A DNA stretch of 64,000 bases from Escherichia coli. GTDB lineage: Bacteria; Pseudomonadota; Gammaproteobacteria; Enterobacterales; Enterobacteriaceae. The notes beneath the pieces were generated by a model that did no database searches, was not told the origin of the DNA, and saw only the letters and a list, made by a program, of their open reading frames with translations. Numbering within the stretch: the first letter of the stretch is position 1; each line of letters opens with the position of its first letter. Both the position numbers and the translations under genes were made by a program. Positions 2,673-54,349 of this stretch are shown here, piece by piece. Location: NCBI RefSeq assembly GCF_003334765.1, contig NZ_QOWT01000001.1. One strand, 5' to 3'.

Positions 2673-3542
2673 TTAGCGATCGTCACTTAAATTAAGTAAC
2701 TGCTTATCAAAACGCGATTCCTTCAGCGCTTCTTTGACCCGCTTCAAGTTATCTCTGAATTTTGCACCGCGTCGCAAAGTAAATCCTGTCGCCAGCACAT
2801 CTATCACGGTCAGCTGTGCAAGTCGAGAAACCATGGGCATATAAATGTCAGTATCTTCCGGTACGTCGAGGGTAATTGCCAGCGTTGCTTCCCGGGCGAG
2901 CGGGGTACCCGCAGAGGTGAGGGCAATCACCATGGCGTCGTTTTCGCGTGCCAGCTGCGCCAGCTCGACCAGATTTTTTGTTCTTCCAGTGTGAGAAATC
3001 AGCACCACCACGTCTCCGTCGCTACAATTCATACAACTCATGCGTTGCAGCACGATATCATCGGAGTACACCACCGGAACATTAAAACGAAAGAACTTAT
3101 TCATCGCATCGTGGGCAACGGCGGCTGAAGAGCCTAATCCGAAAAAGGCGATTTTTTTTGCCTGAGTGAGCAAGTCGACGGCGCGGTTGATGGCAGATTT
3201 ATCCAGTGAATGACGGACATGATCAAGCGTTGCCATTGCGGACTCAAATATTTTCCCTGTGTATGATTCAACGCTGTCATCTTCATTGACATTGCGATTA
3301 ACATAGGGAGTGCCATTCGCCAGACTCTGTGCCAGATGAAGTTTAAAATCAGGAAAACCGCGCGTGTCCATGCTGCGACAGAAACGATTCACCGTCGGTT
3401 CGCTAACATTGGCTTCCAGTGCCATAGCAGCAATACTCGAATGGATCGCGTTATCGGGCGAAGCCAGAATGACCTCGGCAACTTTGCGCTCTGATTTGCT
3501 CAAATGTTCCAGCTGAGACTGGATTTTTTCCAGCATATTCAT
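2673..3542 (-). CDS. hexR: RpiR-family transcriptional regulator HexR
   Basis: ORF 289 aa ([30 protein letters not shown]...), HTH plus SIS domain architecture, divergent from zwf. Confidence 0.9.
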
Positions 3543-3879: not shown

Positions 3880-5355
3880 ATGGCGGTAACGCAAACAGCC
3901 CAGGCCTGTGACCTGGTCATTTTCGGCGCGAAAGGCGACCTTGCGCGTCGTAAATTGCTGCCTTCCCTGTATCAACTGGAAAAAGCCGGTCAGCTCAACC
4001 CGGACACCCGGATTATCGGCGTAGGGCGTGCTGACTGGGATAAAGCGGCATATACCAAAGTTGTCCGCGAGGCGCTCGAAACTTTCATGAAAGAAACCAT
4101 TGATGAAGGTTTATGGGACACCCTGAGTGCACGTCTGGATTTTTGTAATCTCGATGTCAATGACACTGCTGCATTCAGCCGTCTCGGCGCGATGCTGGAT
4201 CAAAAAAATCGTATCACCATTAACTACTTTGCCATGCCGCCCAGCACTTTTGGCGCAATTTGCAAAGGGCTTGGCGAGGCAAAACTGAATGCTAAACCGG
4301 CACGCGTAGTCATGGAGAAACCGCTGGGGACGTCGCTGGCGACCTCGCAGGAAATCAATGATCAGGTTGGCGAATACTTCGAGGAGTGCCAGGTTTACCG
4401 TATCGACCACTATCTTGGTAAAGAAACGGTGCTGAACCTGTTGGCGCTGCGTTTTGCTAACTCCCTGTTTGTGAATAACTGGGACAATCGCACCATTGAT
4501 CATGTTGAGATTACCGTGGCAGAAGAAGTGGGGATCGAAGGGCGCTGGGGCTATTTTGATAAAGCCGGTCAGATGCGCGACATGATCCAGAACCACCTGC
4601 TGCAAATTCTTTGCATGATTGCGATGTCTCCGCCGTCTGACCTGAGCGCAGACAGCATCCGCGATGAAAAAGTGAAAGTACTGAAGTCTCTGCGCCGCAT
4701 CGACCGCTCCAACGTACGCGAAAAAACCGTACGCGGGCAATATACTGCGGGCTTCGCCCAGGGCAAAAAAGTGCCGGGATATCTGGAAGAAGAGGGCGCG
4801 AACAAGAGCAGCAATACAGAAACTTTCGTGGCGATCCGCGTCGACATTGATAACTGGCGCTGGGCCGGTGTGCCATTCTACCTGCGTACTGGTAAACGTC
4901 TGCCGACCAAATGTTCTGAAGTCGTGGTCTATTTCAAAACACCTGAACTGAATCTGTTTAAAGAATCGTGGCAGGATCTGCCGCAGAATAAACTGACTAT
5001 CCGTCTGCAACCTGATGAAGGCGTGGATATCCAGGTACTGAATAAAGTTCCTGGCCTTGACCACAAACATAACCTGCAAATCACCAAGCTGGATCTGAGC
5101 TATTCAGAAACCTTTAATCAGACGCATCTGGCGGATGCCTATGAACGTTTGCTGCTGGAAACCATGCGTGGTATTCAGGCACTGTTTGTACGTCGCGACG
5201 AAGTGGAAGAAGCCTGGAAATGGGTAGACTCCATTACTGAGGCGTGGGCGATGGACAATGATGCGCCGAAACCGTATCAGGCCGGAACCTGGGGACCCGT
5301 TGCCTCGGTGGCGATGATTACCCGTGATGGTCGTTCCTGGAATGAGTTTGAGTAA
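3880..5355 (+). CDS. zwf: glucose-6-phosphate 1-dehydrogenase
   Basis: ORF 491 aa ([34 protein letters not shown]...), canonical G6PD N-terminus, RBS aaggag upstream. Confidence 0.95.
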
Positions 5356-5434
5356 TATCTGCGCTTATCCTTTATGGTTATTTTACCGGTAACATGATCT
5401 TGCGCAGATTGTAGAACAATTTTTACACTTTCAG

Positions 5435-5468
5435 GCCTCGTGCGGATTCACCCACGAGGCTTTTTTTA
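5435..5468 (+). terminator. intrinsic terminator downstream of zwf
   Basis: stem gcctcgtg/cacgaggc followed by T7. Confidence 0.75.
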
Positions 5469-5589
5469 TTACACTGACTGAAACGTTTTTGCCCTATGAG
5501 CTCCGGTTACAGGCGTTTCAGTCATAAATCCTCTGAATGAAACGCGTTGTGAATCATCCTGCTCTGACAACTCAATTTCAGGAGCCTTT

Positions 5590-7401
5590 ATGAATCCACA
5601 ATTGTTACGCGTAACAAATCGAATCATTGAACGTTCGCGCGAGACTCGCTCTGCTTATCTCGCCCGGATAGAACAAGCGAAAACTTCGACCGTTCATCGT
5701 TCGCAGTTGGCATGCGGTAACCTGGCACACGGTTTCGCTGCCTGCCAGCCAGAAGACAAAGCCTCTTTGAAAAGCATGTTGCGTAACAATATCGCCATCA
5801 TCACCTCCTATAACGACATGCTCTCCGCGCACCAGCCTTATGAACACTATCCAGAAATCATTCGTAAAGCCCTGCATGAAGCGAATGCGGTTGGTCAGGT
5901 TGCGGGCGGTGTTCCGGCGATGTGTGATGGTGTCACCCAGGGGCAGGATGGAATGGAATTGTCGCTGCTAAGCCGCGAAGTGATAGCGATGTCTGCGGCG
6001 GTGGGGCTGTCCCATAACATGTTTGATGGTGCTCTGTTCCTCGGTGTGTGCGACAAGATTGTCCCGGGTCTGACGATGGCAGCCCTGTCGTTTGGTCATT
6101 TGCCTGCGGTGTTTGTGCCGTCTGGACCGATGGCAAGCGGTTTGCCAAATAAAGAAAAAGTGCGTATTCGCCAGCTTTATGCCGAAGGTAAAGTGGACCG
6201 CATGGCCTTACTGGAGTCAGAAGCCGCGTCTTACCATGCGCCGGGAACATGTACTTTCTACGGTACTGCCAACACCAACCAGATGGTGGTGGAGTTTATG
6301 GGGATGCAGTTGCCAGGCTCTTCTTTTGTTCATCCGGATTCTCCGCTGCGCGATGCTTTGACCGCCGCAGCTGCGCGTCAGGTTACACGCATGACCGGTA
6401 ATGGTAATGAATGGATGCCGATCGGTAAGATGATCGATGAGAAAGTGGTGGTGAACGGTATCGTTGCACTGCTGGCGACCGGTGGTTCCACTAACCACAC
6501 CATGCACCTGGTGGCGATGGCGCGCGCGGCCGGTATTCAGATTAACTGGGATGACTTCTCTGACCTTTCTGATGTTGTACCGCTGATGGCACGTCTCTAC
6601 CCGAACGGTCCGGCCGATATTAACCACTTCCAGGCGGCAGGTGGCGTACCGGTTCTGGTGCGTGAACTGCTCAAAGCAGGCCTGCTGCATGAAGATGTCA
6701 ATACGGTGGCAGGTTTTGGTCTGTCTCGTTATACCCTTGAACCATGGCTGAATAATGGTGAACTGGACTGGCGGGAAGGGGCGGAAAAATCACTCGACAG
6801 CAATGTGATCGCTTCCTTCGAACAACCTTTCTCTCATCATGGTGGGACAAAAGTGTTAAGCGGTAACCTGGGCCGTGCGGTTATGAAAACCTCTGCCGTG
6901 CCGGTTGAGAACCAGGTGATTGAAGCGCCAGCGGTTGTTTTTGAAAGCCAGCATGACGTTATGCCGGCCTTTGAAGCGGGTTTGCTGGACCGCGATTGTG
7001 TCGTTGTTGTCCGTCATCAGGGGCCAAAAGCGAACGGAATGCCAGAATTACATAAACTCATGCCGCCACTTGGTGTATTATTGGACCGGTGTTTCAAAAT
7101 TGCGTTAGTTACCGATGGACGACTCTCCGGCGCTTCAGGTAAAGTGCCGTCAGCTATCCACGTAACACCAGAAGCCTACGATGGCGGGCTGCTGGCAAAA
7201 GTGCGCGACGGGGACATCATTCGTGTGAATGGACAGACAGGCGAACTGACGCTGCTGGTAGACGAAGCGGAACTGGCTGCTCGCGAACCGCACATTCCTG
7301 ACCTGAGCGCGTCACGCGTGGGAACAGGACGTGAATTATTCAGCGCCTTGCGTGAAAAACTGTCCGGTGCCGAACAGGGCGCAACCTGTATCACTTTTTA
7401 A
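5590..7401 (+). CDS. edd: phosphogluconate dehydratase (Entner-Doudoroff)
   Basis: ORF 603 aa ([31 protein letters not shown]...), IlvD/Edd family. Confidence 0.95.
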
Positions 7402-53383: not shown

Positions 53384-54349
53384 CTACAAATCCAACACCA
53401 GGCGTTTACCCTTCGCACGCGAACAACAGATCAACATACTTTGCTGGCTGGCACGCTCTTCATCGCTAAAATATTGATCCCGATGGTCAGCTTCACCTTC
53501 CAGTATTGCTGTTTCGCAGGTTCCGCATACCCCTTCACGACATAAACATTCCACTTTCGCGGCTTTATTATTTTCAATAACCTGCAAAATAGTCATCTCT
53601 TCCGGCACCACAAACTCTTTTCCGGAACGGGCAAGCACCAGGGTAAATGCATCGCCGGTTTTGTCTTCGATAGCAAATTGCTCAAAGTGCAGCGTATCGG
53701 CGGCGATGTCCAGACGCGCAGCTTCACTTCTTACCGCTTCAATTAGCGCCTCGGGGCCACAGGTATAAACGTGTGTGCCAGGTTCGATATCCGCCAATAA
53801 TCGCGCTAATTCCAGTCGTGTTCCGGTTGATGAATGATGCAAATGGACTTTCTCAGCCTGCGGATGCTGGACTAGCTCATCACGAAATGCGCAACTTTCT
53901 GGATTTCGCGAGCAGTAATGTAGCTGCCAGTCGACGTCGCTGTGTTGCAGCTCTGCCATGTGCGACAGGAAAGGGGTGATACCAATACCGCCCGCGATAA
54001 ACAGATGCTTTCTGGCTGAGGGAATTAGCGCAAACAGGTTATTAGGCGTTGAAATCGTTAACCGATCGCCCACTTTTACCTGCTGATGCAAAAAGCGGGA
54101 ACCGCCGCGCGAGTTTTCCTCCAGCCGAACGGCAATCTGATAACAAGAGGTGTCATGCGGCGAACTCAGTAGTGAATACGCATTGCTGTACTGGTTATCA
54201 CCATCGCTCATCTGCACAATGACGTGACTTCCTCCGGTAAACGCAGGTAATGGTTTGCCATCGGTTGCCACCAGCGTGAAGCGTTTCACCTGTTCGGTAA
54301 GGGGTTCAACCTGGCTCACCTGTACTTCAAACATTTGATAGTCTGACAT
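53384..54349 (-). CDS. cntB: carnitine monooxygenase reductase subunit (ferredoxin-NAD reductase, FNR-like plus 2Fe-2S)
   Basis: ORF 321 aa (MSDYQMFEVQVSQVEPLTEQVKRFTLVATDG...), C-terminal CxxxxCxxC...C ferredoxin motif; K-12 name yeaX. Confidence 0.88.
   Translation of the reverse strand: MSDYQMFEVQVSQVEPLTEQVKRFTLVATDGKPLPAFTGGSHVIVQMSDGDNQYSNAYSLLSSPHDTSCYQIAVRLEENSRGGSRFLHQQVKVGDRLTISTPNNLFALIPSARKHLFIAGGIGITPFLSHMAELQHSDVDWQLHYCSRNPESCAFRDELVQHPQAEKVHLHHSSTGTRLELARLLADIEPGTHVYTCGPEALIEAVRSEAARLDIAADTLHFEQFAIEDKTGDAFTLVLARSGKEFVVPEEMTILQVIENNKAAKVECLCREGVCGTCETAILEGEADHRDQYFSDEERASQQSMLICCSRAKGKRLVLDL

Follow-up and report, generated by a model that had tools for sequence, protein, structure and literature searches.

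A repeated motif upstream of Escherichia coli edd is probably the left half-site of a Cra (FruR) operator

The window, a stretch of E. coli DNA 64,000 nucleotides long (64 kb), is identical to E. coli K-12 MG1655 across the 5 kb compared, and an MG1655 position equals 1,940,194 minus the window position. The motif described here lies in the zwf-edd intergenic region, in which zwf ends at 5355 and the edd ATG stands at 5590. A hairpin with its T-run follows zwf, confirming the setting between the zwf terminator and the edd start that a first-pass annotation of the sequence had given. The same annotation had described three copies of an 11-nt motif. Copy 1 and its exact reverse complement, copy 2, are found precisely where they had been placed, with their arms separated by 28 nt; the third copy exists as well, although it lies three nucleotides upstream of the 5537-5547 assigned to it (Table 1). 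Copies 2 and 3 form a second inverted repeat (12 nt, 92%).

Table 1. Features of the zwf-edd intergenic region and the start of edd, in window coordinates.
Feature	Position	Strand	Sequence	Description
GntR-type operator O1	5379-5396		TATTTTACCGGTAACATG	Upstream of the terminator; 16.5 bits; 0.99 conserved in Enterobacteriaceae
zwf intrinsic terminator	5435-5467	+		GC-rich hairpin (5435-5460) followed by T7
Putative edd P1	5447-5475	+		-35 TTCACC (5447-5452), 17-bp spacer, -10 TACACT (5470-5475)
Motif copy 1	5475-5485	+	TGACTGAAACG	Supplies the left half of Cra box 1 through its core, TGAAACG
Cra/FruR box 1	5477-5492		ACTGAAACGTTTTTGC	Complete 16-bp imperfect palindrome including copy 1; main candidate operator
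Cra box 2	5509-5524	-	ACTGAAACGCCTGTAA	Left half-site intact, right half decayed in E. coli
Motif copy 2	5514-5524		Exact reverse complement of TGACTGAAACG	Inside Cra box 2
Motif copy 3	5534-5544	+	TGAATGAAACG	Orphan Cra-type left half-site
GntR-type operator O2	5601-5618		ATTGTTACGCGTAACAAA	Inside edd codons 4-10; 16.5 bits

The clustering of these copies is not random. The degenerate 11-mer TGAMTGAAACG occurs three times in the 64-kb window compared to 0.11 expected, a count reached by none of 100 shuffles, and three TGAAACG cores inside 70 bp were seen in 1 of 1000 shuffles. Window-wide, the 7-mer core shows no enrichment (11 observed versus 12.95 expected). The shorter hexamer TGAAWC/GWTTCA is present six times within 150 bp (5445-5596, with starts at 5445, 5479, 5515, 5538, 5550 and 5591); this is the sole such cluster in the 64-kb window and was matched by 0 of 300 shuffles. 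Two of the six hexamers fall on the -35 element and on the edd start codon region.

Several origins of the repeat were considered and rejected. A recent local duplication does not fit, because the likeness between copies ends at 12 nt, and neither does a mobile or repetitive element, because 5,426 E. coli genomes carry the region as a single copy. A 14-codon open reading frame from an ATG at 5496 to a TGA at 5540 was rejected as a leader peptide, since no Shine-Dalgarno sequence precedes it and conservation of its ATG does not extend outside Escherichia.

Cra/FruR is a LacI-family regulator that senses carbon flux. The motif core, TGAAACG, makes up the left half-site in its operator consensus, gcTGAAtCGaTTCAgc (PMC5888115). 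We calibrated the match on the MG1655 upstream regions of fruB, pykF, ppsA, aceB, icd, pck, pfkA and fbp, all Cra targets named in the literature, from which nine sites (two at fruB) were chosen by best match to the consensus; the PWM rests on these nine sites. The calibrating sites carry 11-14 consensus matches out of 16, have in common a G[C/G]TGAA[T/A]CG left half with a looser right half, and score 6.8-20.5 bits when left out of the matrix one at a time. We found one comparable site only in the edd region, box 1, whose 11 of 16 consensus matches lie inside the calibrating range. Its PWM score of 8.8/10.3 bits ranks 13-28 among 127,970 window positions and is attained by 3.8% of shuffled intergenic regions. 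We regard it as a moderate match, and 11/16 matches turn up about 30 times in the window.

In its makeup, box 1 resembles the operators of fruB (O1 and O2), pykF, pfkA, ppsA, aceB, icd, pck and fbp, with which it shares the left half G/A-C-TGAA-W-CG, and as in known Cra operators its right half is weaker, its 16-bp palindrome is imperfect and its match count is in range. It differs in standing at the weak end of their range, with A at position 1 and a TTTTTG right half. Box 1 may be the same edd operator that Ramseier et al. 1995 reportedly list; a search of the literature for the site sequence as text returned nothing relevant.

Copy 1 alone among the three extends to a full site. As 16-mers, copy 2 (ACTGAAACGCCTGTAA) scores about 0 bits and copy 3 (AATGAAACGCGTTGTG) about -2 bits, indicating that only the left half-site is present at each, and copy 3 stays below 3 bits in E. 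coli and its nearest relatives. LacI-family dimers normally require both half-sites. Box 2 follows box 1 at a spacing of 32 bp, or about three helical turns, and in the O157 variant of copy 2 box position 2 is G, as it is at ppsA, pck and fbp.

The regulator that this match points to is one already tied to the gene. Cra represses edd in vivo (PMC8085971, PMC4393010, PMC4050194), and the Entner-Doudoroff genes have been assigned to the FruR regulon of Escherichia and Salmonella (PMC4052901). Box 1 is very probably a functional Cra operator, and we consider it likely that the repeated element as a whole is the left half-site, CTGAAACG, of the Cra/FruR operator, acting by the mechanism proposed below.

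For the comparison with other species we obtained 80 edd loci, Salmonella not among them, and aligned the window with the zwf-edd spacers of 55 Enterobacteriaceae (56 sequences). Conservation in other enterics was a check that the first-pass annotation had itself suggested. Box 1 reaches 8 bits or more in 31 of the 56, always at the same distance from the ATG (-112/-113). Copy 3 is restricted to Escherichia and some Citrobacter. The box 1 orthologues read mainly GCTGAAGCGATTTTGC or CTGAAACGATTTTG. For box 2, 12 of the 56 reach that threshold, at -82/-83, a pattern of site turnover between genera, and the box is strong in Trabulsiella (GCTGAAACGCTTGAAT, 16.1 bits) and C. werkmanii (GCTGAATCGCTTGTTT, 13.7 bits), with good versions also in Leclercia, Lelliottia and Silvania. 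The E. cloacae complex, in which box 1 is degenerate, retains the left half of copy 2 (1.5-6.5 bits), and the copy 2 core is also kept in many genera without box 1. Copy 3 forms no clearly good box in any species, the nearest being one off-register match of 9.1 bits. Averaged over the 56 sequences, identity to the E. coli base is 0.73 for box 1, 0.56 for box 2 and 0.35 for copy 3, compared to 0.29-0.43 for the spacers.

Good edd-upstream Cra boxes were seen in Citrobacter, Trabulsiella, Kosakonia, Cedecea, Atlantibacter, Mangrovibacter, Shimwellia, Silvania and others. Box 1 is degenerate in Klebsiella, Raoultella, Kluyvera and the E. cloacae complex, which appear to have lost the Cra box. The candidate edd Cra box is thus spread more widely than the "Escherichia and Salmonella" of the published regulon (PMC4052901), which is a mildly new point. 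The segment TTTTGCCC (5487-5494) keeps a conservation of 0.8-0.99 also in genera that lack the left half of box 1 (Klebsiella and the E. cloacae complex), so that part of the conservation of box 1 has a cause other than Cra.

Within Escherichia, copy 1 is invariant among the sampled alleles bar one base in an IS200-disrupted strain, and the copy 2 core, CGTTTCA, is retained in every sampled E. coli allele. The genus mostly preserves the 7-nt core in copies 2 and 3, while the 5' bases of the 11-mer drift, with G at 5521 replaced by A, C or T in copy 2 and TGAA becoming TGTA; the stretch 5525-5533 is the most variable of all. This drift around preserved cores indicates that the constrained unit is the Cra half-site and not the 11-mer. 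Citrobacter carries GAAACG at copy 1 and GAATCG on the opposite strand at copy 2, a difference within the A/T (W) position of Cra.

These patterns also bear on whether another DNA-binding protein, for example KdgR, might recognise the 11-mer. In favour of such a protein, all copies carry on the 5' side of the Cra core an extra TGA for which the Cra consensus has no need. However, it is this extension that drifts within Escherichia while the Cra core stays, and the variation between genera tracks the tolerances of Cra. A KdgR-type palindrome, TGAAAYNNNRTTTCA, of the TGAAA(Y)-N3-(R)TTTCA type, found no match here at up to two mismatches, a weak test with a consensus not validated on a known KdgR site. 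Taken together, we regard binding of the 11-mer by another protein as very unlikely.

We then considered how box 1 is placed relative to transcription of edd. On rescoring, the top sigma-70 candidate of the spacer is TTCACC-17-TACACT, with 8 of 12 matches; a promoter and terminator scan at 9/12 matches and a loop of at most 8 nt returned nothing in the region, its thresholds being too strict. The -35 and -10 hexamers are 0.96 and 0.99 conserved, respectively, across 56 species. This promoter, edd P1, has a predicted transcription start site (TSS) at about 5482. The TSS table of Kim 2012 holds weak starts inside zwf only, and the 3'-end tables of Adams 2021 do not mention edd or zwf. Box 1 lies directly 3' of the candidate -10, at about -5 to +11 relative to the predicted TSS, and would therefore cover the start site; the centre of box 2 falls at about +34.5 and that of the copy-3 box at about +60 to +61.5. 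In genes repressed by Cra, the Cra site overlaps or follows the RNA polymerase site (reviewed in PMC4393010). Relative to the promoter and TSS predicted here, box 1 would be promoter-proximal and would overlap or lie downstream of the polymerase site.

We propose that Cra would occupy box 1 when fructose-1-phosphate and fructose-1,6-bisphosphate are low, blocking initiation or promoter escape at edd P1, and that glycolytic flux would release it. This control would run parallel to, and independently of, that exerted by gluconate-responsive GntR at O1 and O2. Both the Cra occupancy and the TSS at edd P1 are inferred.

The terminator upstream is well supported by comparison, as its stem covaries with compensatory changes at 7 of 10 pairs, its loop GGATTCACC and T-run are 0.97 conserved, and the TTTTTTTATTACACT that follows is about 97% invariant. 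The T-run together with ATTACACT is about 97% invariant although the stem covaries. The putative -35 of edd P1 sits in the terminator loop, with the -10 directly after the T-run, and we infer that the zwf terminator and edd P1 overlap. A palindrome, TGTAGAA-N4-TTTTACA, was also observed at 5410-5427, between O1 and the terminator, in Escherichia and Citrobacter only; as a guess, it might be bound by a regulator of the YebK/HexR type.

The first-pass annotation had proposed that the copies form a looped or multi-site arrangement for GntR. The idea of a multi-site operator stands, whereas GntR as its ligand does not. GntR, through which edd P1 is known to respond to gluconate, is a member of the LacI family, with half-sites sharing a general TGxxxC shape; the GntR boxes of gntT and gntK share protein family and overall operator geometry with the Cra sites of the motif. 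The bases that determine half-site specificity differ, reading TGTTAC, compared to TGAAAC in the edd copies. On a GntR PWM built from the gntT and gntK boxes (TGTTACCCGTAACA type), the motif copies score -1.1 bits or lower, the matches sitting instead at O1 and O2, and the copies are 0.35-0.68 conserved compared to 0.99 for the GntR operators. These scores exclude GntR as a match to the motif, and we regard a GntR operator made up of the copies as extremely improbable.

The two GntR-type operators are themselves under strong constraint. About 60 species share the O2 core, TGTTACG(C/G)GTAACA, unchanged even at its synonymous positions; the codons TTA, GTA and ACA within it are fixed while adjacent codons vary. 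O1 and O2 lie 222 bp apart, at about -94.5 and about +127.5, enclosing P1 and all three copies, an arrangement that suggests GntR looping between O1 and O2 around the promoter. With strong GntR sites at O1 and O2 and none on the copies, control by GntR is explained without the motif.

An RNA hairpin was the other possibility raised in the first-pass annotation. Here the inverted repeats would act in the edd leader, or in transcripts reading through from zwf, as a hairpin of copies 1 and 2 or as alternative 1:2 and 2:3 pairings, in the manner of an attenuator or a translational switch. Copy 2 is indeed able to pair with either copy 1 or copy 3, and the predicted K-12 fold of 5470-5592 is dominated by the 1:2 stem (z = -2.2, equalled by 3 of 200 shuffles). 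However, this z depends on copy 1 being included, and the predicted TSS at about 5482 leaves most of copy 1 untranscribed; the leader fold then has z = -0.70, about that of shuffles. Across 56 species, copies 1 and 2 are 57% paired and copies 2 and 3 54% paired, compared to about 95-100% for the core pairs of the terminator. RNAalifold on 24 genera gave a consensus of 0 pairs, no covariation was found, and all Rfam matches had E of at least 0.5, none of them significant. Within Escherichia, position 5521 shows three different substitutions, each disrupting the stem with no compensating change, and the Citrobacter GAAACG/GAATCG pair would make an A-A mismatch in RNA while being fine at the W position of Cra. 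A conserved RNA structure is excluded by these comparisons, and we consider an RNA role for the repeats very improbable.

Copy 2 is the E. coli remnant of another Cra box, still strong in other genera, and copy 3 is an orphan half-site specific to Escherichia and Citrobacter. E. coli FruR is described as a tetramer able to bridge or bind tandem sites (PMC7897506), so that half-sites beside box 1 could raise local occupancy. That copies 2 and 3 add low-affinity cooperative Cra binding in this way is a tentative suggestion that we hold with some doubt; otherwise they would be decaying or neutral relics.

The competing account agrees on the identity of the motif and differs only on the function of copies 2 and 3. 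It holds that box 1 alone matters, copy 2 being an ancestral operator that has decayed and copy 3 a half-site that is neutral or arose by chance, and that the perfect 11-bp inverted repeat is an accident of the K-12 allele. We give this account close to an even chance. It fits the near-zero or negative 16-mer scores of copies 2 and 3, the presence of any of the four bases at 5521 in copy 2 and the drift of the 5' TGA of copy 3 within Escherichia, and a conservation of copy 3 (0.35) no better than that of the spacers. It also fits the other Cra promoters examined, which show no half-site clusters comparable to the two extra exact left half-sites that accompany box 1 within 70 bp. Against it stand the highly non-random clustering of the exact 7-mer and of TGAAWC, and the persistence of the copy 2 core in every sampled E. 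coli allele and in many genera that have no box 1.

Several sites for one regulator around a promoter are familiar from multi-operator LacI/GalR systems, among them lac with O1, O2 and O3, E. coli fruB with two FruR operators and V. cholerae fruB with three. The edd region resembles these in having more than one site around a promoter, but in E. coli its extra sites are half-sites rather than full operators. To our knowledge, a half-site-assisted operator architecture has not been described for Cra. A broader proposal takes in box 1 at the TSS, the two orphan left half-sites, the six TGAAWC hexamers in 150 bp and the -35 in the terminator loop: edd P1 would be a Cra half-site array on which tetramers bind cooperatively, combining an initiation block with a roadblock, inside the loop between GntR O1 and O2. 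We think this proposal unlikely to be correct in full.

The edd motif belongs to a familiar class of element, at a target already established. Repression of edd-eda by Cra is a textbook case of carbon-flux regulation; the half-site cluster is a mildly new point. The outcome is that the motif is assigned to Cra instead of to GntR or an RNA, that two invariant operators, one lying within the edd coding sequence, account for GntR control, and that the half-site cluster yields a testable idea of auxiliary low-affinity sites for a LacI-family tetramer. Beyond correct annotation the importance is small, and both the type and the location of the main site are as expected.

Some strain-specific differences were observed in the same region. 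At window position 5404, between O1 and the terminator, K-12 has G (TTGCGCAGAT), compared to A in all seven other alignable Escherichia sequences sampled, a minor difference. E. coli ETEC6334 carries an IS200C-family element at the equivalent of about 5461-5466, directly upstream of the -10, which parts the terminator hairpin, the putative -35 and O1 from the promoter; copy 1 reads TGCCTGAAACG in this strain, and regulation of edd is probably altered.

Elsewhere in the window, the Cra PWM matched GGTGAATCGTTTCTGT (3378-3393, minus strand, 18.8 bits) inside yebK, at MG1655 1,936,801-1,936,816 and about 490 bp upstream of the zwf ATG. As zwf is reportedly repressed by Cra, this site may be a zwf operator. 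Two further matches lie inside yeaX (GGTGAAACGCTTCACG, 54275-54290, 20.1 bits) and yoaF (GGTGAAACGATTGATG, 62857-62872, 14.6 bits).
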